Shown in pieces: positions 2,181 to 55,076 of a stretch of DNA of 55,076 nt. This DNA comes from Minisyncoccota bacterium. Lineage in GTDB: Bacteria > Patescibacteriota > Minisyncoccia > Phycocordibacterales > UBA9973. Each line of letters begins with the position of its first letter. Within the stretch, counting starts at the first letter, position 1. The DNA is taken from contig JAVHNX010000009.1 of the NCBI GenBank assembly GCA_036169735.1, forward strand, positions 7,558 to 62,633. The letters run 5' to 3'. The notes under the pieces are model-generated. The model made no database searches. It saw only the letters and a list, made by a program, of their open reading frames with translations, and was not told the origin of the DNA. The translations under genes were made by a program, and so were the position numbers.

Positions 2181-3098
2181 TTATCTATTCAAAGGTAGTT
2201 CAATAAAAAATACCGCGCCTTTATTTCTTCCTTTTGATTTTGCATAAATTTTACCACCATGACGATCGATAATTTGTTTTGACAGATAAAGTCTTAATCC
2301 CATACCATCTGGATAGGCGAGTATTGCTTTCTTATTACGGAAAAATCTTGAAAAGATTCTCATCTTGTCATAAAAACTTAAACCCATACCTGTATCTGAA
2401 ATATAAAAAAGTAGTTTGTTATTTGATTTCAAAATACAATCAATTAATATTTTGCCGTCCTTAGGTGTGTAAACGATAGCGTTTTCTAAAAGTGCATCAA
2501 TTGTGAAAGTTATTTTTTTTAAATCGACAGTGAGCAGGGGAATATCTTTAAAAGTAGAAACTTGAAAAGTAATATTTTTTTTATTTATTTCTTCTCTGTA
2601 TTTTATTATTGATTTTTCTACGACGTCTCGAATGGATATTGCTACAAAGACGTAACCAGAAGTATTTTTAATATCTTTGATACCTGCAATCAAGTCAACA
2701 ATTTCTAGAAGTTTTTCTGTGGCATTATTTAAATTTTGAATATATAAAAGTTTTTCATCTTGGGACATATCTCTTTCTAGTTCTTTGCTGATCCAATTTA
2801 TTCGGGTGAGGGGAGTTCGAAAAGTATGGTTCACAATTGAAGTAAATTCGTGTTCTATCTTGTCGGTTGAGAGGCTTAGTTTTATAAAATAAAAAGAAAA
2901 ATATAATATGGATATAGAAGAGATTAAAGGAATGACCCATGAAGGAATAGTATAAAGTGAATCTAAATAATTAGGTTTAAATAATAGGAGAATAATACAA
3001 AATAAGTATAAAAGGATTATTAAACTTTTCGTGAATTTCCAAGTTTGTTGCATATGAATAGTATAACTCATATCTTTTATATATTGAAAGTTATCCAC
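2181..3098 (-). CDS. Membrane-bound sensor histidine kinase (HisKA + HATPase_c), no adjacent response regulator
   Basis: N-terminal hydrophobic helices. H-box FTSIVNHTFRTPLTRINW, N-box LLENAIVYTP, G-boxes SDTGMGL and GMGLRLYLSKQIIDRHGG. Confidence 0.85.
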   Translation of the reverse strand: MDNFQYIKDMSYTIHMQQTWKFTKSLIILLYLFCIILLLFKPNYLDSLYTIPSWVIPLISSISILYFSFYFIKLSLSTDKIEHEFTSIVNHTFRTPLTRINWISKELERDMSQDEKLLYIQNLNNATEKLLEIVDLIAGIKDIKNTSGYVFVAISIRDVVEKSIIKYREEINKKNITFQVSTFKDIPLLTVDLKKITFTIDALLENAIVYTPKDGKILIDCILKSNNKLLFYISDTGMGLSFYDKMRIFSRFFRNKKAILAYPDGMGLRLYLSKQIIDRHGGKIYAKSKGRNKGAVFFIELPLNR

Positions 3099-3421
3099 AT
3101 ATTTCTTATTTTCTACTTACTCTTTGTTGCCAAATTATTTATAATTAAGATACTTCAATGTTGTTGGAGTTGTTGAAAGAAAGTTTAGGAATAGAGGTTC
3201 GTTGTTGTACTTCTTTCCTGTCGTAAGTGTGATTTTTATAAATATTTTTAAGAGTTTTTTCTCTGTGTATGAGTAAATTTTTTAAAATAAAAAAAGAGGC
3301 TCTAGAAGCCCTAAATCTTTATAAGGTTATAGGTTTTTATTAATTAGTTAATTATTAATTTTAATCAGAAGCGTCGCGTTTTAATGGACATTACGCGACA
3401 TGATTCTGCAGAATCAATTAT

Positions 3422-32783: not shown

Positions 32784-34532
32784 ATGAACTCTCCCGTTCA
32801 AAAAATTAAGGAGAGGCTTTCAATCGAAGATGTAGTCTCTTCTTACATGACCCTGACTAGGGTAGGCTCAAACTTAAAAGGTAGGTGTCCTTTTCATAAC
32901 GAAAAGACACCGTCCTTTTTCGTGTCGACAGACCGTGGAAATTATTACTGTTTTGGTTGCGCTGCCAAAGGTGATATTTTTACTTTTATTGAAGAGTTTG
33001 AGGGTCTTGATTTCAAGGGCGCTCTTAAACTTCTGGCTGACCGAGCAGGAGTTCCACTTGAGAACTACAACCCAAAAGAGGAAAGCGAAAAAGAAAAAAT
33101 CTACAGAGCAATGGAAGAAGCTACTAAATATTTTGAAAATAATTTAGCAGTGAACAAAGAAGCGTTGGAATATTTGAAAGCTCGAGGATTGAAAGATGAA
33201 ACGATAAAAGATTTCAGAATTGGCTTTGCCAAGAATGATTGGCGTGAACTTTATTTTCATTTACAGAAAAAAGGTTTTACTGATATTGAAATAGAGAAAG
33301 CTGGCCTAGCCAAAAAATCTGAGAAAGGTTTTTATGATAGATTCCGGGGACGTATTATGTTTCCTATTTCGGATTCGAGTGGACGCGTGATAGCCTTTTC
33401 CGGAAGAATCTTTATTGACGATGGTAAATCCGCTAAATATCTAAATAGTCCTGATACTCCAGTTTTTAGTAAGTCCGCTGTTCTTTATGGTTTGGATAAA
33501 GCCAAAGAATCAATCCGTAAAAACAATTTCTCTATTTTAGTGGAAGGTCAGATGGATCTAGTATTGTCGCATCAAGCAGGATTTAAAAATACTGTGGCTG
33601 CTTCCGGTACTGCTTTTTCTGATACTACAGTTTCAAAAGAAAATGTCGTATCAAATCTAGGATTAGTTCGTCGTCTTTCAGAAAATATTGTATTGGCTTT
33701 TGATGCTGATAAAGCAGGACTCAGTGCTTGTGATCGTGCTGGTAAGATAGCTTTATCTTTAGGAATGGATGTGAAAGTCGCTTCAATGCCAGATGGCGTA
33801 GATCCAGCAGATTTGATATCAAAGGAAGGTCCCGACGCGTGGCGTAGTTCTGTTAGGAATTCTAAACATATAGTAGAATTTTTATTAGATAAGGTTATAA
33901 AAGATTCTGGAGGTGATACACATAAGGCAGGAAGAGGAATCAAGGAAAAGATCTTGCCTTATTTGTATGCACTTTCGAGTGCGATTGAAAAATCTTTCTT
34001 TATTAAAAAAATAAGTGATGCCTCTGGTATTCCTGAAAGTGCATTGAAAGATGACTTAAAGAAAATTGAACAAGATGCAAAATTTGAAAAAAAAGAAACA
34101 GTAGAAATAAAAAAGATAGAAGATAAAGTATTTAGAAAAGATTATATTGAGCGTAAGTTGTTAGGAGTTGTCCTCTGGCAGAGAACCCTCCCAAAACAAT
34201 CTATAGATATTGAAAAAATATTAAAAGCACTCGAAGAAACTTTAAATAAAAAACAGGATGAGATAATGGAGAAAACAAAAGATGATACTGAAGATTTAAT
34301 TTTTGAAGCAGAAGTTTTTTATGGAGAAGATATAAATTTAGAAAAAGATGTGAAGGAATTGATTAGTAATTTAAAAGAAGTATATTTAGAAGAAGAGTTG
34401 TTTCGTAAAAGACGTGAATTGCATGTATCTGAAGAGAAAAAAGATTTAGATATATCAAGTAAAATCTTTAAAGAAATTAATGAAATAGTAAATAAGATTC
34501 AAGAGATTAAAAGTGGTCGTCTAACAAAATAA
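32784..34532 (+). CDS. dnaG: DNA primase
   Basis: Zn-ribbon [25 protein letters not shown]-polymerase core [19 protein letters not shown], and Toprim VEGQMD..FDAD.AG. Confidence 0.93.
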
Positions 34533-35851: not shown

Positions 35852-35957
35852 AGACCCCCTCCCAGCCTCCCCCTTAGTAAGGGGGAGGAGTAAAATACGG
35901 TGAATTCTGATTTAATTTCTTCCTCCCCTTACTAAGGGGAGGATTGAGGTGGGGTCT
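35852..35957. repeat. GC-rich nested palindromic element: two 23-nt palindromes enclosed by an outer inverted repeat
   Basis: Palindrome A is cctccccctta-g-taagggggagg (35866-35888). Palindrome B is tcctcccctta-c-taaggggagga (35921-35943). The outer arms are agacccc (35852-) and ggggtct (-35957). Confidence 0.7.
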
Positions 35958-40132: not shown

Positions 40133-40208
40133 TGGAGCCGGCACGAGGATTCGGACCCCGGACATCCACTTTACAAAAGTGGCGCTCTACCAACTGAGCT
40201 ATGCCGGC
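40133..40208 (-). tRNA. tRNA-Thr (anticodon UGU), CCA encoded
   Basis: The reverse complement folds by hand as GCCGGCA-TA-GCTC-AGTTGGTA-GAGC-G-CCACT-TTTGTAA-AGTGG-ATGTC-CGGGG-TCCGAAT-CCTCG-TGCCGGC-T-CCA (76 nt). The T-loop reads TCCGAAT rather than the usual TTCGAAT. Confidence 0.85.
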
Positions 40209-45718: not shown

Positions 45719-47137
45719 ATGGAATTTAAAATAGAAAAAAAAATGAAAGGGTGTCTTGGAAGAATAGGGGTTTTGACAACCCCACACGGAGTTATTTTAA
45801 CTCCTTCTTTTGTGGCGGTTGGAACTAAGGCTACAATAAAATCTCTCAATCCAGATCAGGTGAAAGAAGAGGGAACTCAAGTTGTACTGGGAAATACTTA
45901 CCACTTATTTTTACAGCCTGGTGATGAGATAGTTGCCAAGGCCGGAGGTATCGGAAAGTTTATGAATTGGTCCGGTCCGACAATGACAGACTCAGGTGGT
46001 TTTCAAGTTTTTTCTTTGGGTGCTGCTTATGGAAAAAATATTTCGAAAGTTATTCAAATCACCGATCCATCACTGATGATTCCCGAACGTTTTGATGATA
46101 GTGATGCGCCACGTCTCGCAAAGATTGGACAAGATGGGGTGTCTTTCAAGTCTCATTTAGATGGATCTATTCATTACATTACGCCTGAGAAATCAATTCA
46201 GATTCAACACAATCTCGGTGCTGATATAATTTTTGCTTTTGATGAATGTACTAGTCCTGCGGAAGATTTTAAATACCAAGAAGAAGCTTTGAATCGTACT
46301 CATGCTTGGGCTAAGAGGTGTTTGGAAGAACATAAAAAATTAGAAGAGTTAAAGGAAAATTCAAAGAAGATATTTTCTCGCGACTCGCACTCTGACCTGG
46401 GTGTGGTTAATGATCTGGACGTAGCGTATGTCGCAGAAAACACTTCTTTAAATTTTCCTGACATTACAGAAAGCTCGACCTTGAATTTTCTCCAAAGTTC
46501 TCAGGCTTTATTTGGTATTGTGCAGGGTGGCAGAGAAGAAGACCTTCGCAAAAGATCTGCTCAGGTTATTTCAGAAATGCAGGTTGATGGAAAAAGTTTT
46601 GATGGTTTTGGTATTGGTGGAAGTTTTGCCAAAGAAGATATGAGTACAGCTGTGAAGTGGGTGAATGAAATTTTGCCGGAAGAAAAACCTCGACATTTGC
46701 TCGGTATCGGTGAACCGGAAGATTTATTTATGGGTATAGAAAATGGCGTGGATCTTTTTGATTGTGTCTTGCCGACACGTCTCGGACGCAATGGTACTAT
46801 CTATACAAAAAAAGGAAAGATAAGTATTACGAATGCAAAATATCGTGATGATTTTTCTCCAATTGAAGATGACTGTGAATGTTACACTTGTGGGCAAAGT
46901 AGCAGAGGACAAGGTGACTCCTTACCCAGAGGGGAAGGTGTTTCCTTGTCTTCCGTAAAATACAGCAAAGCCTACATAGCCCACCTATTCCACGGCAAAG
47001 AAATGCTAGCAGGAACCTTGGCTTCAATTCACAATTTACATTTTATTGTTTCTCTTGTTGCCAAAATCCGTCAGAGTATTATTGATGATAATTTCTATGA
47101 GTTTAGGGATGAGTTTTTGAAAAATTACGAAAAATAA
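45719..47137 (+). CDS. tgt: Queuine tRNA-ribosyltransferase with two lineage-specific insertions (472 aa)
   Basis: TPHG...TP.F..VGT, MTDSGGFQV, FAFDEC, LFGIVQGG, GFGIGGS, LLGIGEPEDL, Zn motif CECYTC ... SIHNL. Confidence 0.9.
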   Translation: MEFKIEKKMKGCLGRIGVLTTPHGVILTPSFVAVGTKATIKSLNPDQVKEEGTQVVLGNTYHLFLQPGDEIVAKAGGIGKFMNWSGPTMTDSGGFQVFSLGAAYGKNISKVIQITDPSLMIPERFDDSDAPRLAKIGQDGVSFKSHLDGSIHYITPEKSIQIQHNLGADIIFAFDECTSPAEDFKYQEEALNRTHAWAKRCLEEHKKLEELKENSKKIFSRDSHSDLGVVNDLDVAYVAENTSLNFPDITESSTLNFLQSSQALFGIVQGGREEDLRKRSAQVISEMQVDGKSFDGFGIGGSFAKEDMSTAVKWVNEILPEEKPRHLLGIGEPEDLFMGIENGVDLFDCVLPTRLGRNGTIYTKKGKISITNAKYRDDFSPIEDDCECYTCGQSSRGQGDSLPRGEGVSLSSVKYSKAYIAHLFHGKEMLAGTLASIHNLHFIVSLVAKIRQSIIDDNFYEFRDEFLKNYEK

Positions 47138-47161
47138 AAAGCTTCATTTATGAAGCTTTTC
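47137..47161. terminator. Bidirectional terminator between tgt and the convergent small gene
   Basis: aaaagcttca / tgaagctttt stem with a ttta loop. Confidence 0.6.
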
Positions 47162-47177
47162 GTGTTTTTAAGAATTT

Positions 47178-47459
47178 TTATTCTTCCGCTTTTTCTTCTG
47201 TTGATTTTCTTAATTGATTTATTTCTTTTTGTTTTTTTGATATAAAACAAATTAAATATAAAATAAACAAAAGATCATTAATTGGATGAATTATCGGTTC
47301 AATTTCAAGTGAAATAAAACTCATAATAATTAGTGTTAACCCAATTACTGCAATAATCATCATTATTGAATTAAGAGTTTTATCACCTATATTTTTAGCA
47401 ATAAACTCGTGTGGGTACTCTAGCTTTGTAAATTTCATATCTTTAAGTTTTAAGAACAA
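47178..47459 (-). CDS. Hypothetical small two-TM membrane protein (start uncertain: TTG at 47459 or ATG at 47438)
   Basis: Hydrophobic segments SIMMIIAVIGLTLIIMSFI and LLFILYLICFI. No recognisable motif. Confidence 0.4.
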   Translation of the reverse strand: MFLKLKDMKFTKLEYPHEFIAKNIGDKTLNSIMMIIAVIGLTLIIMSFISLEIEPIIHPINDLLFILYLICFISKKQKEINQLRKSTEEKAEE

Positions 47460-47548
47460 ACTGTTTTAGGTCAGTTAAAGCACCTTTTTATCTTTTAATA
47501 TTATATACCTTTTAATCTAAAATGTCAAGAGGTAAATAAGCCTTGTTT

Positions 47549-47557
47549 TGCTATACT
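47549..47557 (+). promoter_or_regulatory. Extended -10 element TGcTATACT, ending 11 nt before the uvrB ATG
   Basis: Read in the sequence. There is no good -35, which is typical for extended -10 promoters. Confidence 0.4.
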
Positions 47558-47568
47558 TTTACCTGTAA

Positions 47569-49677
47569 ATGCCAAACAACAAATTCAAACTCCATACCGA
47601 ATACCAGCCCGCAGGGGACCAGCCAAAGGCTATAAAGGGGCTTTTGGAAGGTCTAAAAAAAGGTATGCACAAGCAGACCCTTTTGGGTGTGACAGGTTCC
47701 GGTAAGACTTTTACTGTGGCGAATGTTATTGCTGAAATGAATAAACCGACTTTGGTTATTGCTCACAACAAAACTCTCGCAGCACAGCTTGCTCAAGAGT
47801 ACAAAACTTTTTTTCCGGAAAACGCGGTGCATTATTTCGTTTCTTATTACGACTATTATCAACCCGAAGCATACATGCCGACTACAGATACTTTTATTGA
47901 AAAAGATGCGCAGATCAATAAAGAAATAGACCGATTGAGACATGCTTCGACACAAGCACTTTTGACTCGCAAAGATGTAATCATTGTCGCTTCAGTTTCT
48001 TGTATTTATGGTTTGGGAAGTCCAGAAGAATACAAGGAAGAAAATTTAGAAATAACTATTGGAGATAAAATAACTCGTACGAGCATGATGTCTCGATTGA
48101 TAGAAATACATTTTGAGAGAACGAATGCAGACCTGACTCCAGGTACTTTCCGTGCATTGGCAAATAAAATAGAAATTATGCCGGTGTCGGAAAATTTTTT
48201 ATATTCTATCGAGCTTGCTGAACCTGATGCAACAAGGTCGGACCTTAAATCCCCAAAAAGGTCCGACCTTAAGGAGCCAGTTGCATCAGGTTCAGCTGTT
48301 AAGAGTATTCTTCGCATTGACCCAGTTTCTTCTAAAATCCTCTCTGAGGAAAAAAGTATTTTTATTTTCCCGGCAAAACATTTCATAACTAATAAAACAA
48401 AATTAGCGAAAGCCATAAAAGATATTCAAGCGGAGTTAAAATTACAATTAAAAAAGTTTAATAAAGAAGGAAAGCTTCTAGAAGCGGAGAGAATTAAACG
48501 TCGTACAAATTATGATATAGCAATGCTCCGCGAGGTTGGGTATTGTTCCGGAATAGAAAACTATTCTCGTCTTTTGTCCGGTAAGAAAGCAGGTGAAGCA
48601 CCCGAGACTTTGTTGTCTTATTTTGGAAAAGATTTCCTGACAGTTATCGATGAATCGCATGTCACACTGCCACAGATTGGTGGTATGTATGCAGGTGATG
48701 CTTCTCGTAAAACTACTTTGATTGAACACGGTTTTAGATTGCCAAGTGCCAAGGATAACAGACCTCTTAAATATGATGAGTTTGAAAAGCGTGTTGGCCA
48801 GGTGATTTATACGACAGCGACTCCTTCTGAAGTTGAAAGAAAAGAAAGTGATCAGATAGTGGAGCAGATTATCCGTCCTACAGGCCTTGTAGACCCTGAA
48901 ATTGAGGTGAGACCGATTGCGGCTGTACTTGGTAGTCCTGCTACCAAGTTAGTAGCAGGACTACCAAGTTACCCAGGCCAAGTGCAAGATTTCATCGCAG
49001 AAGCAGGAAAAGAAATTAAAAAAGGTGGCCGAGTGATAGCTACCACTTTGACCAAAAAAATGGCGGAAGATTTGTCTGCATATTTGAAAGACAAAAAAAT
49101 AAAATCAGAGTATGTGCATAGTGACATAAAGACGATTGAACGTATAAAAATCTTAACAGAATTCCGTCGAGGAACTTTTGATATTTTAGTCGGAGTGAAT
49201 CTTCTCCGCGAAGGTTTGGATTTACCGGAGGTGACACTCATTGGTATTTTAGATGCGGACAAAGAGGGGTTTTTGCGTAGTGAAGTTTCTTTGATACAGA
49301 CGATAGGTCGTGCTGCTCGAAACGTTGCAGGACGTGTGATTCTTTATGCTGACAGGATTACTGGCTCGATGGAGCGTGCGATGGCAGAGACAAATCGCCG
49401 ACGAGTTATCCAAGTCGCTTATAATAAAAAACATAATATAACTCCGAAAACAATTATTAAAAAGATAAATGATATTACTGAAGCATTGGATAGTCTGCAT
49501 GATAAAGCAGTAGCTTCTGAGCTCGATCTGGATACGAAACTTTTTGCAAAAAATCCCTCTAAGCTTGTGAAGCTAAAAGAGCGACAAATGTCCGAGGCAG
49601 TAAAAGCTTTAGATTTCGAAACCGCGGCTATTCTCCGTGATGAACTTAAAGTCTTAAAAGAAAGATTGGTGAAGTAA
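47569..49677 (+). CDS. uvrB: Excinuclease ABC subunit B with two in-frame palindromic insertions
   Basis: Walker A GVTGSGKT, YVSYYDYYQPEAY, DESHVT, helicase motifs LTKKMAEDL / VGVNLLREGLDLPEV / QTIGRAARN, and the C-terminal UVR motif ..FETAAILRDEL. Confidence 0.95.
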   Translation: MPNNKFKLHTEYQPAGDQPKAIKGLLEGLKKGMHKQTLLGVTGSGKTFTVANVIAEMNKPTLVIAHNKTLAAQLAQEYKTFFPENAVHYFVSYYDYYQPEAYMPTTDTFIEKDAQINKEIDRLRHASTQALLTRKDVIIVASVSCIYGLGSPEEYKEENLEITIGDKITRTSMMSRLIEIHFERTNADLTPGTFRALANKIEIMPVSENFLYSIELAEPDATRSDLKSPKRSDLKEPVASGSAVKSILRIDPVSSKILSEEKSIFIFPAKHFITNKTKLAKAIKDIQAELKLQLKKFNKEGKLLEAERIKRRTNYDIAMLREVGYCSGIENYSRLLSGKKAGEAPETLLSYFGKDFLTVIDESHVTLPQIGGMYAGDASRKTTLIEHGFRLPSAKDNRPLKYDEFEKRVGQVIYTTATPSEVERKESDQIVEQIIRPTGLVDPEIEVRPIAAVLGSPATKLVAGLPSYPGQVQDFIAEAGKEIKKGGRVIATTLTKKMAEDLSAYLKDKKIKSEYVHSDIKTIERIKILTEFRRGTFDILVGVNLLREGLDLPEVTLIGILDADKEGFLRSEVSLIQTIGRAARNVAGRVILYADRITGSMERAMAETNRRRVIQVAYNKKHNITPKTIIKKINDITEALDSLHDKAVASELDLDTKLFAKNPSKLVKLKERQMSEAVKALDFETAAILRDELKVLKERLVK
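48217..48296. repeat. 80-bp compound palindrome inside uvrB (17-bp perfect outer arms, 13-bp perfect inner arms)
   Basis: gctgaacctgatgcaac (48217-48233) is the exact reverse complement of gttgcatcaggttcagc (48280-48296). Inner aaggtcggacctt (48234-48246) is the exact reverse complement of aaggtccgacctt (48258-48270). Confidence 0.9.
48927..48969. repeat. 43-bp palindrome inside uvrB (18-bp perfect arms, 7-nt loop)
   Basis: acttggtagtcctgctac (48927-48944) is the exact reverse complement of gtagcaggactaccaagt (48952-48969). ctaccaagtta also occurs twice as a direct repeat (48941 and 48961). Confidence 0.9.
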
Positions 49678-49690
49678 TTTTTTAAATTCT

Positions 49691-49718
49691 TTGCATTTTA
49701 ATTTCAGCTTGCTATACT
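49691..49718 (+). promoter_or_regulatory. Promoter TTGCAT-N16-(TGc)TATACT, with the -10 ending 12 nt before the ATG
   Basis: Hexamers read in the sequence upstream of 49731. Confidence 0.5.
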
Positions 49719-49730
49719 TTTCGCAATAAA

Positions 49731-51128
49731 ATGGCAAAGAAAAAAATAAAGAAAAACGGTAAGAATTGGAAGAAATTTTGGAAGCTCGGTGTGGAGGAAT
49801 TCAACACTCAGTTTTTTGGAGTTTCAAAAGACGGGGATATGACTGTCTCTGAAGGTCACAACTTATATAATCTTTCTGACTTAGCAGAAAAGTATGGAAC
49901 TCCTCTGCAAGTAGTTTTACCTTTTGTTATTGAGGACCGTTTAAAAGACTTGATTGGGTATTTCCAGGCTTATATGAAAATATATGGCTATAAGGGTAAA
50001 TTCTTTTATCACTATCCAATGAAGGTAAACCAGAATAAAGAATTTATTTTACCTCTTGTTTCTGAAGGAGCAAATTTGGAAGTTACTTCAGCAAATGAAC
50101 TTTGGCTTGTAAAAAAACTTTGGGAAAGAGAAAAATTTGATAGTAAAATCCGAGTACTTTGCAACGGACCAAAGACCGACGTTTATTTAGATTTGATTGA
50201 AGAATTACGTACCAAGGGGATGAGTATTATTCCTATTATTGAAGGTCCTGAAGAGATTGAAAGACTTGCAAAATACAAGGGTGATATCGGGGTACGCGTA
50301 GACCTCTCCATAAAAGCAGATACCCATTGGGATAAAAAATTTGATCGTTTTGGATTGTCAGAACGTGATGTTCTTGATTTGAATAAAATGAAAAATCTAA
50401 AGATAATGCACTATCATTTGGGTTCTCAAATAAAGACACAGAAAAGTATTTTAGATGGAGTGAAACATGCTTTTAGTATTTATGTTGAACTACAAAAAAC
50501 ACATCAAAATTTAGACACTTTAGATATTGGTGGAGGCTTCGGTATTCCTTATGAAAAGAAAAAGTTTTATACCGCGAAAGGTGTCTCAAGTAAGATGATA
50601 AGAATGCTGAAAAACTTGTCAGATAAAGCAGGTATCAAGCATCCAAACCTGGCTGTCGAATGGGGACAATATATTGTAGCTCCATCACAAGTTACGATTT
50701 ATAAAATTATTTCCGAGAAATCCATTCCGAAAGCCAATGCTAAAGCTTGGTATATTATTGATGGAAGTTTTATGAATGATTTAAAGGATACATGGGCAAT
50801 TCATCAGAAATGGCATACGATACCTGTGAATCATATGAATGGTAGTTTAAAAAGAGTTTGGCTAGCTGGTAGTAGTTGTGATTCAGATGATAAATATACT
50901 GCTGGTGGTAATTATATTCTCTTACCAAAGCTTCATGAAAACAAAGATCAGTATGTGGCTATTTTAGATACGGGTGCTTATCAAGATAGTCTTGCCTCAC
51001 ACCATTGTCTCCTGTCTGCTCCAATGAAAATAGTAGCTCAGGATGGCATGATAAAAATTGCTCGTAAGCGTGAAACAGCAGAATCAATCGGTAAGCTTTT
51101 TGGTTGGAACACTGGAGATCATAAATAA
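49731..51128 (+). CDS. speA: Compact biosynthetic arginine decarboxylase-like PLP enzyme (alanine racemase-fold decarboxylase)
   Basis: PLP-lysine context YHYPMKVNQNKEF (SpeA-type YP.KVNQ), HYHLGSQI, LDIGGGFGIPYE, GSSCDSDD, DTGAYQDSL. At 465 aa it is shorter than the ~630-aa classical SpeA. Confidence 0.65.
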   Translation: MAKKKIKKNGKNWKKFWKLGVEEFNTQFFGVSKDGDMTVSEGHNLYNLSDLAEKYGTPLQVVLPFVIEDRLKDLIGYFQAYMKIYGYKGKFFYHYPMKVNQNKEFILPLVSEGANLEVTSANELWLVKKLWEREKFDSKIRVLCNGPKTDVYLDLIEELRTKGMSIIPIIEGPEEIERLAKYKGDIGVRVDLSIKADTHWDKKFDRFGLSERDVLDLNKMKNLKIMHYHLGSQIKTQKSILDGVKHAFSIYVELQKTHQNLDTLDIGGGFGIPYEKKKFYTAKGVSSKMIRMLKNLSDKAGIKHPNLAVEWGQYIVAPSQVTIYKIISEKSIPKANAKAWYIIDGSFMNDLKDTWAIHQKWHTIPVNHMNGSLKRVWLAGSSCDSDDKYTAGGNYILLPKLHENKDQYVAILDTGAYQDSLASHHCLLSAPMKIVAQDGMIKIARKRETAESIGKLFGWNTGDHK

Positions 51129-54710: not shown

Positions 54711-55076
54711 TTTTATTTAGAGTTTGATCCTAGCTCAGGATGAACGCTGGCGGCGTGGATAAGGCATGCAAGTCGAACGGACCTCATTTTTCCCTAGATG
54801 CGATTACATCAAGTCAAAGGTCGTTTGAGGTTAGTGGCGAACGAGGTAGTAATACACAGGAACTTCCCCCGAAGTCGCGAATAATTCACCGAAAGGTGGA
54901 CTAATACGCGATAGTCTCGCAAGAGTAAAGATTTATCGCTTTGGGAAAGGCCTGTGCAATATCAGCTAGTTGGTGAGGTAATGGCTCACCAAGGCTATGA
55001 CGTTTAGGGGGAGTGAGAGCTTGGCCCCCACCGATGGTACTGAGACACGGACCATACACCTACGGGTGGCTGCAGT
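54711..55076 (+). rRNA. 16S ribosomal RNA, 5' portion (truncated by the window end)
   Basis: Contains agagtttgatcctagctcaggatgaacgctggcggcg (the 27F region with one mismatch), ..gcatgcaagtcgaacgg.., and ends in cctacgggtggctgcagt (the 341F region). The exact 5' end is approximate. Confidence 0.93.

Follow-up and report, generated by a model that had tools for sequence, protein, structure and literature searches.

The stretch of DNA analysed here, referred to as the window, comprises 55,076 nucleotides (nt) of contig JAVHNX010000009.1 from a Minisyncoccota bacterium (Patescibacteria), and this 55 kb was all the sequence examined from the source genome. It contains an open reading frame (ORF) of 702 amino acids (aa) at 47569 to 49677 on the plus strand, which matches solved UvrB structures with an E-value of about 1e-226; the Pfam UvrB domains were found on the identical protein P0001. 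This uvrB gene is host to a compound palindrome of 80 bases, inserted in frame at 48217-48296. The palindrome is built in two layers. Its outer arms, GCTGAACCTGATGCAAC (48217-48233) and GTTGCATCAGGTTCAGC (48280-48296), are complementary over 17 of 17 positions and enclose 46 nt. Within them lies a pair of units, AAGGTCGGACCTT (48234-48246) and AAGGTCCGACCTT (48258-48270), the second being the exact reverse complement of the first (13/13). Both inner arms are in addition self-palindromic about the central base, a G in the first unit. They are separated by the 11-nt loop AAATCCCCAAA (48247-48257) and followed by an unpaired tail of 9 nt, AAGGAGCCA (48271-48279). The perfect arms of both layers and the loop had been described in the original prediction, and all were confirmed. 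The 80-base segment translates in frame as AEPDATRSDLKSPKRSDLKEPVASGSA, the insert-spanning peptide stretch of the UvrB protein reads RSDLKSPKRSDLK, and the ORF is intact across the segment, as had been claimed.

The palindrome is well beyond chance. Inverted repeats that pair perfectly over 17 nt or more, with no more than 60 nt of loop, number four in the window and are absent from all of 100 dinucleotide-preserving shuffles; with arms of at least 13 nt, nine were counted against a shuffle mean of 0.13. This agrees with the earlier claim that the structure is no chance product. When the DNA of the whole window was folded in sliding 60-nt segments, just 10 regions reached -13 kcal/mol; four of these are coding, among them both palindromes of uvrB, the one at 48217-48296 and a second one described below. 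The insert was also rightly described as GC-rich: its GC content is 0.50, compared with 0.40 in the gene and 0.34 across the window.

Compared with solved Bacillus UvrB, the window protein has two extra segments. The first lies between residues 208 and 241, and the second is an exact 18-residue gap after the VRPI motif, which corresponds to the second palindrome. At the first position (site 1), the solved Bacillus UvrB and the closest relatives of the window protein, P0002 and P0003, have a turn of 4 residues (SIDLEK-EKVERI in P0002 and P0003), whereas the window protein has 27. The same is seen in the DNA, where 27 codons in the window stand against 4 (GAA AAA GAA AAA) in the relative L002. 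The 120 best UvrB homologues all come from Patescibacteria (Paceibacteria, Nomurabacteria and similar names), and 102 of them have only the short turn at this site, so that the short connection expected in other UvrB proteins was indeed found. On a distance tree of UvrB, the window protein is sister to P0002 and P0003, both of which are empty at site 1. Since its two closest relatives lack the insert, the copy in the window uvrB is recent and was gained after the split from them; the presence/absence variation looked for between close relatives thus exists. An AlphaFold model gives residues 221-240 a predicted local distance difference test (pLDDT) score of less than 50 and assigns them no secondary structure; strand 211-216 precedes them and strand 243-250 follows. 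The insert is therefore predicted to lengthen the beta-hairpin turn in domain 2 of UvrB, where the model shows it as a disordered loop.

These observations bear on two simple explanations, namely that the insert is an old, lineage-specific UvrB loop that was inherited vertically and is palindromic by accident, or that it is an artefact of assembly. Extra residues at the turn in 18 of the 120 Patescibacteria homologues would be consistent with an inherited loop. However, the inserts at site 1 and at the second site (site 2, after VRPI) vary in sequence from lineage to lineage and are scattered over the UvrB tree, even inside a clade of near-identical proteins; sister taxa are empty, and the perfection of both stem layers argues for recency. 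As for an artefact, window positions 46820-50348, palindrome included, recur without a difference in a Logan assembly contig of run SRR25490526, and the repeat family described below occurs in assemblies from many projects and assemblers. We therefore regard both explanations as extremely improbable.

The relation of the inner part to other palindromes was examined with the exact pattern AGGTCGGACCT-N5-30-AGGTCCGACCT, of which AGGTCGGACCT, the core of the first unit, is the left half. A scan of 185,579 species genomes (596 Gb) returned at least 118 loci, nearly all from Patescibacteria of many named groups, where about one match would be expected by chance (596e9 x 26 / 4^22, our own arithmetic). 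Copy counts given here rest on loci selected for containing the motif, and some record names ('Saccharibacteria', 'Gammaproteobacteria') are depositor labels. Exact paired-core matches were also seen in records labelled Bacteroides, Streptantibioticus, Dehalococcoidia and Flavobacteriaceae (L028, L037, L067 and L082), and could be due to chance, contamination or transfer. The same pattern gave no match in 2.9 million viral contigs, and there was accordingly no sign in that scan of a phage vector for the repeat. The repeat loci, 0.98 Mb in all, yielded another 70 copies of variant sequence, in 26 of which the two arms compensate each other perfectly, as against none in a shuffled control; exact and variant copies together number 200 in these loci and 0 in the shuffle.

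Several genomes carry the repeat more than once. It is present on at least 10 contigs of a Lloydbacteria metagenome-assembled genome, and JBAQFC01, the genome of the closest relative, whose uvrB is empty at site 1, has copies in ComEC-like, cysteine desulfurase-like and class I tRNA synthetase genes. The locus L003 has three copies within 22 kb. One 44-nt copy, TTTGAGGTCGGACCTCAAGGGGTCCCGAGGTCCGACCTCTGGAA, is present identically at site 1 and site 2 of its uvrB and has the inner arms of the window copy, and a compensated variant, AGGTCGAACCT / AGGTTCGACCT, lies in its uvrC. At site 1 of L005, the window's inner arms enclose another loop, and one of the arms has a mismatch. In the source genome, one copy was found in the 55-kb window, both core matches belonging to the uvrB element. 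The suggestion that the palindrome might belong to a repeat family was thus borne out, as its relatives are spread over many loci and lie both in other genes and in uvrB itself.

A typical family copy has a stem of 12-13 bp. One subfamily takes the form outer stem / GGGAAA / core / T..ATTCAAAA / core / TGAGGAG(CC) / outer stem, and it is this subfamily that the window copy matches, both in its loop (spacers of L069, L033, L007, L099, L019 and L040), which with the flanking T and A makes up the 13-nt T..ATTCAAAA spacer, and in its tail (L007, L053, L069, L099 and L036). The tail, earlier described as a 9-nt asymmetric bulge, is unpaired as stated. It is no defect of the palindrome: since it matches the conserved TGAGGAG(CC) strand of the subfamily's internal loop, the bulge is characteristic of the family, and what the window copy lacks is the strand facing it, GGGAAA. 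The inner 37-46 nt (48234-48279) are a copy of a multi-copy repeat family of Patescibacteria, and it is only this inner part that is a typical family member.

Most of the copies found sit inside genes. Of 130 exact copies, 84 (approximately 65%) lie in stop-free frames of at least 150 aa, and the core is without a stop codon in all six frames. The host genes include those for LigA (4), UvrB (3 in an unbiased scan), class I tRNA synthetases (3) and cysteine desulfurase-like proteins (3), followed by TopA, RecJ, GatB, ComEC and glycosyltransferases with two each; RecG, FtsK, UvrA, UvrD/PcrA, an SMC/RecN-type protein, SecA, LepA and ArgRS are further hosts, and PheT carries two copies within one gene. 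As a control, 130 neighbouring ORFs were examined, and LigA, UvrB and TopA were absent among the 25 families listed for them. The host ORFs are also longer than the neighbouring ORFs (median 413 aa vs 293 aa), and therefore part of the bias towards replication and repair genes may reflect ORF size.

This distribution raises the possibility that paired GGTCSGACC palindromes are a selected cis-acting signal, in which binding sites or RNA or DNA structures would serve the host, be it in DNA uptake, termination, mRNA processing or the regulation of repair genes. The abundance of replication and repair genes among the hosts would fit such a role, as would the frequent compensation of arm variants and the fact that intergenic copies often run on into A-run and T-run stems, which resemble bidirectional terminators; functional effects of intragenic copies of repetitive extragenic palindromic (REP) sequences have been speculated upon before (PMC3733652). 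Against it, the insert is missing from the closest relatives at site 1, copies decay (the arm mismatch in L005, and the degenerate site 1 peptides of P0075, P0113 and P0116), and Rfam returned no family, only generic hairpin matches to miRNA precursors far under thresholds. A DNA-uptake signal, considered on account of the repair-gene bias, was rejected because the window has no singleton cores and the density of the repeat is far below that of uptake sequences. The association with transposase genes described next also accounts for the spread of the repeat without a function, and on all these grounds we consider a cis-acting signal very unlikely.

Ten ORFs in repeat-rich intervals of the loci were scanned against Pfam. 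Two scored above the Pfam cut-off of 23 bits for Y1_Tnp, at L092 2514-3248 and L044 1377-2090 (27.9 and 28.7 bits), and tblastn added two more repeat-flanked genes, at L054 3279-3827 and L023 3564-4109. In L092 the cores lie at 2448-2484 and 3261-3297, with a triple-core structure directly upstream of the start codon and its inverted counterpart right after the stop codon. The L044 gene has cores at 1253/1270 on one side and an array at 2129-2241 on the other, that of L054 has cores at 3125-3252 and 4026/4090, and that of L023 carries a near-identical doublet at both ends, differing by one base. The repeats are thus physically associated with Y1 transposase genes at four loci. Beside the L044 gene (2129-2251) the core is arranged as a tandem array of eight AGGTCCGACCTCCAAA with a 16-nt period and no inverted doublet, and the L092 gene itself carries one in-frame core at 3026-3036, in the protein segment SQGRTYE.

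The proteins contain the motifs LMPNH(Y/F)H and YIH(F/L)NP, corresponding to the HUH and tyrosine motifs of this enzyme class, and their sole NCBIfam match is the model of the REP-associated tyrosine transposase (RAYT; REP_Tyr_transpos, 28-36 bits, cut-off 80). RAYTs belong to the IS200/IS605 superfamily. While a single-sequence search of solved structures with the transposase gave nothing relevant, a profile search returned only the ISDra2 TnpA and the E. coli TnpAREP (4ER8), both at E ~0.07-0.1. A structure was also modelled with AlphaFold from P0121, which is 89% identical to the L092 protein (pLDDT 77). The best fold match of this model is 4ER8, the E. coli TnpAREP bound to a REP hairpin (E = 3e-4), followed by the IS608 and ISDra2 transposases. 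At approximately 240 aa, the candidate is longer than the 165-residue chain of 4ER8 and the 146 positions of the NCBIfam RAYT model. It has 762 homologues at E <=1e-10, and the few among them with source names are mostly labelled Patescibacteria. When homologous RAYT-like genes of other Patescibacteria were read as DNA, three were found to be flanked by other palindromes (ATACAGGGG..CCCCTGTAT at L170, ATGTCAAAGGTGWCACCTTTGACAT at L173 and ATGTCATAGGTGACACCTATGACAT at L175/L176). Different RAYT-like genes being flanked by different palindromes, the existence of several repeat-transposase pairs within the phylum is suggested; one repeat for one lineage is the known pattern of REP-RAYT systems.

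Taken together, these findings point to the inner part of the insert being, most probably, a REPIN-like (REP doublet forming hairpins) non-autonomous element, which a RAYT-like Y1 transposase would move in the form of a single-stranded hairpin and which would persist wherever it does no harm and preserves the reading frame. The element would consist of two inverted copies of the 13-nt unit AAGGTCSGACCTT around a short spacer, and would be mobilised in trans by the HUH/Y1 single-strand DNA transposase, whose recognition site would be the hairpin adopted by the repeat when single-stranded. As none of the six reading frames of the core contains a stop codon, in-frame copies that enter a tolerant surface loop would survive as an extra peptide, in the present case 23 net additional residues in the beta-hairpin turn of UvrB domain 2. 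The role of the transposase in moving the repeats, like the neutrality of the insert for UvrB, is an inference. The earlier proposal of a selfish palindrome similar to those of Rickettsia, in frame and tolerated as a loop, thus gains support from the empty orthologues, the related copies elsewhere, the presence/absence variation and the low-confidence loop.

A number of observations weigh against this interpretation and have to be set beside it. The NCBIfam scores are far below the cut-off and make the match a distant one, the profile hits to solved structures are weak, and the TM-scores between the P0121 model and 4ER8 (0.41 and 0.57) are moderate. No RAYT-like gene lies in the 55-kb window, and transposition and cleavage by the candidate enzyme are putative. 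Target-site duplications were not seen, direct repeats of 2 nt flanking 15% of copies, of 3 nt 2% and of at least 4 nt 0%, although uncertain boundaries make this a weak test. The GTAG and CGTC tags are absent from the window 80-mer; of 127 copies, just 4 have the first and 3 the second within 10 nt, which is less often than random segments of equal length do. Nor do the approximately 65% of copies found inside genes resemble the placement of classical REPs. Finally, the outer arms are no family feature, and, as discussed next, arms of the same type surround an unrelated interior in L001, so that a single element does not account for the 80-nt unit.

The second stem of 17 nt is the longest among the 130 family copies, just 10% of which have a second stem of at least 6 nt. 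In L001, which belongs to a non-sister lineage, the same uvrB site carries the related arms GCAGAACCTAATGC / GCATCAGGTTCAGTA, but its interior has no detectable similarity to that of the window in either orientation. As these interiors align no better than shuffles, the shared outer arms are no ground for treating the L001 and window inserts as one element. At site 1 of L004 there is a 21-nt perfect palindrome which opens with GCN GAR CCT codons as in the window. The outer arms may be a second palindromic element that the repeat entered centrally, or may have come from a local inverted duplication.

The latter leads to the alternative that the whole palindrome arose de novo by snap-back or template switching, in which a DNA end is folded back and copied, producing a local palindrome without any mobile element. 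The unique length of the second stem would be in keeping with this, and no other copy of the outer arm was found in the window or in approximately 0.9 Mb of related loci, which, having been chosen for another motif, are uninformative on this point. The palindromes at site 1 of the window, L001 and L004 all start with GCN GAR CCT, and differences between them in third codon positions are mirrored in the right arm. A similar trace is seen at site 2 of L124 and L126, where the left end of the palindrome, GGCTGA, is native and present in the empty allele L125, whereas the inverted copy TCAGCC exists in the filled alleles only. However, neither outer arm looks like the uvrB sequence on either side of the insertion site, whether in the window or in L002, the relative that is empty there, and similar arm motifs occur in frame in unrelated genes. 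These came from a metagenome scan with the outer arms, which gave 42 matches, mostly from a different repeat family of one metagenome (Ga0126336); only in L137, L153, L165 and L144 do the palindromes appear related, being in frame or extended, the arm motif lying in frame in a 1700-aa Laminin_G_3 protein (L137, L153) and in L165. The Ga0126336 family (L127-L168) comprises about 33 contigs with the palindromic repeat aactttacatgtgccGAACCTAATGCAAAT...ATTTGCATTAGGTTCggcacatgtaaagtt, whose arm resembles the window outer arm, possibly by chance. What decides the matter for the inner part is that its arms, loop and tail are those of a family whose copies number in the hundreds and sit at unrelated loci, and this a local fold-back cannot yield. 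Snap-back is therefore refuted for the inner part, where it is not needed, and possible for the outer arms, to which this part of the original prediction is now confined; as an account of the insert as a whole we find it unlikely.

The second in-frame palindrome of the window uvrB, at 48927-48969, lies at site 2, after VRPI. It has 18-nt arms (ACTTGGTAGTCCTGCTAC) and a 7-nt loop, is unrelated in sequence to the first, and is the same phenomenon with a different sequence. Each of its arms contains a small GGTAG...CTACC palindrome. Extra residues at site 2 are present in 39 of the 120 homologues; P0002 and P0003 have other, longer inserts there. In six uvrB genes read as DNA, the inserts at the two sites have a GC content of 0.46-0.64, and 8 of 11 form strong DNA hairpins, with z between -4 and -8 relative to shuffles. 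In addition, the uvrB of L005 has an insert at a third site, after the TLLSYFPK motif, comprising 43 aa in frame and forming a triple-nested palindrome. With a DNA fold of -38.5 kcal/mol (z -8.4), this compound palindrome is more extreme than that of the window.

It is tempting, if rather doubtful, to suppose that unrelated palindrome families hit the same two UvrB turns, as well as recurrent positions in LigA, TopA and RecJ, independently of each other. Their recurrence would then be more than tolerance: the transposition machinery, or hairpin-prone single-stranded DNA at these positions, may target particular places in replication and repair genes, and loops beside the UvrA-binding face of domain 2 may alter repair, for example towards mutator-like states; nested insertion would then explain the compound structures.

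The window holds further palindromes. An intergenic one at 35866-35943 consists of the inverted units CCTCCCCCTTAGTAAGGGGGAGG and CCTCCCCTTACTAAGGGGAGG, about 32 nt apart, and has the same doublet architecture with another sequence; similar hairpins, CCCCTCCTT..AAGGAGGGG, are found in frame at site 2 of uvrB in L002 and L004. In the approximately 0.9 Mb of related loci, chosen as they were for another motif, its core has three near matches (two in L020, one in L039), and the site 2 and tgt palindromes have no copies. The tgt ORF (45719-47137) contains two imperfect in-frame palindromes. That at 46905-46953 has 23-nt arms which are 78% complementary and encodes SSRGQGDSLPRGEGVSLSSV, and that at 46353-46459 has 17-nt arms, 94% complementary and 73 nt apart. 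They probably represent inserts of a similar nature that arrived earlier and have since decayed. An unusually stable coding-region DNA fold was also noted at 32876-32935 (-14.4 kcal/mol, GC 0.45), in the ORF 32784-34532. Elsewhere, a tRNA gene lies at 40136-40208 on the minus strand, beside a terminator-like hairpin, and the window ends inside the 5' part of a 16S rRNA gene (54712-55076).

Patescibacteria have very small genomes which are usually called streamlined. Yet a family of hairpin repeats, for which there is a candidate transposase, has spread into the coding regions of the most conserved genes. Where marker proteins such as UvrB, LigA, TopA and the tRNA synthetases vary in length or contain GC-rich segments, such inserts can be the source, with consequences for alignments, phylogenies and structure predictions. 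Whether an individual copy is present or absent can serve as a fine-scale strain marker. The family also offers a second case, independent of Rickettsia, of how proteins absorb palindrome-encoded loops, here with an identifiable candidate enzyme.

Four kinds of known system invite comparison. Miniature inverted-repeat transposable elements are likewise small, non-coding and multi-copy, with inverted termini, a presence that varies between relatives and the possibility of in-frame fusions. Unlike these, the present family has no target-site duplication that we could find, within the limits set by its uncertain boundaries, and the whole element is a hairpin with no unique core between terminal repeats. 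No parent insertion sequence of the DDE type sharing its termini was seen among the families listed for the 130 neighbouring ORFs, the nearest equivalent of a parent being the flanked Y1 gene. AT-rich organelle genomes contain GC-rich palindromic clusters and double-hairpin elements, sometimes in protein genes, in which each arm can fold alone, giving the option of a double hairpin; hairpin elements are reportedly found in placozoan mitochondrial genomes as well. The likeness lies in GC-rich hairpins in an AT-rich genome, but those genomes are organellar and the sequences unrelated, and we know of no transposase associated with such clusters.

A closer parallel is provided by the Rickettsia palindromic elements (RPE-1 to RPE-10), which insert in frame and of which the first reported were approximately 150 bp long (PMC10969869); the R. 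conorii uvrB itself has two RPE-type inserts (PMC10969869, PMC3733652). Like these, our family is made up of multi-copy palindromes that lie in frame in housekeeping genes of a small AT-rich genome, are tolerated as peptide and also occur between genes. The insert is again an extra peptide in a low-confidence turn (pLDDT <50), with the ORF intact and the empty state found in relatives. It is set apart from the RPE families by length (a unit of 37-46 nt, or 80 nt with the outer arms), by its host, a Patescibacterium unrelated to Rickettsia, and by tag; on this comparison of features, no common sequence motif is apparent. RPE-4 and RPE-6 carry a CGTC tag, and no dedicated transposase is known for REPs with that tag (PMC3733652), whereas our family lacks the tag and has a candidate transposase. 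The comparison with RPEs made in the original prediction therefore holds for an in-frame selfish palindrome, but the closest known kind is the REP/REPIN-RAYT system, as the repeats flank Y1 genes at four loci.

REPs are by name extragenic, and the intragenic, in-frame position of most family copies is the first respect in which our family differs from them. It also has no GTAG or CGTC tag, its transposase of approximately 240 aa scores far under the NCBIfam cut-off for RAYTs, its host is a Patescibacterium, and the window copy is wrapped in an additional perfect stem of 17 nt. By its tags, the family falls outside the GTAG and CGTC groups of REPs, and it is not Rickettsial. The likenesses are nevertheless extensive. 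In both, a short self-palindromic unit is paired with an exactly inverted second one in a hairpin doublet, there are many copies per genome with lineage-specific differences, and a Y1/HUH (IS200-like) gene is flanked by the repeats on both sides, as in the REPtrons, in L092, L044, L054 and L023 if not in the window. The best fold match of the transposase is to TnpAREP (4ER8), and distinct transposase lineages are flanked by distinct palindromes. Intragenic REPs have been reported from replication and repair genes of other phyla, among them uvrB, uvrA, ligase and tRNA synthetase genes, with two inserts in the R. conorii uvrB (Di Nocera et al., PMC3733652). The intragenic copies of our family are concentrated in the same kinds of gene, with uvrB hit twice, as in those phyla (PMC3733652). 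We found no paper that ties RPEs or RAYTs to Patescibacteria or has the core in a relevant context, in a library without most subscription journals, and this agrees with the earlier statement that such elements had not been described for genomes of the candidate phyla radiation. In-frame RPEs and intragenic REPs are thus known, and what appears to be new is the presence of this family in Patescibacteria.

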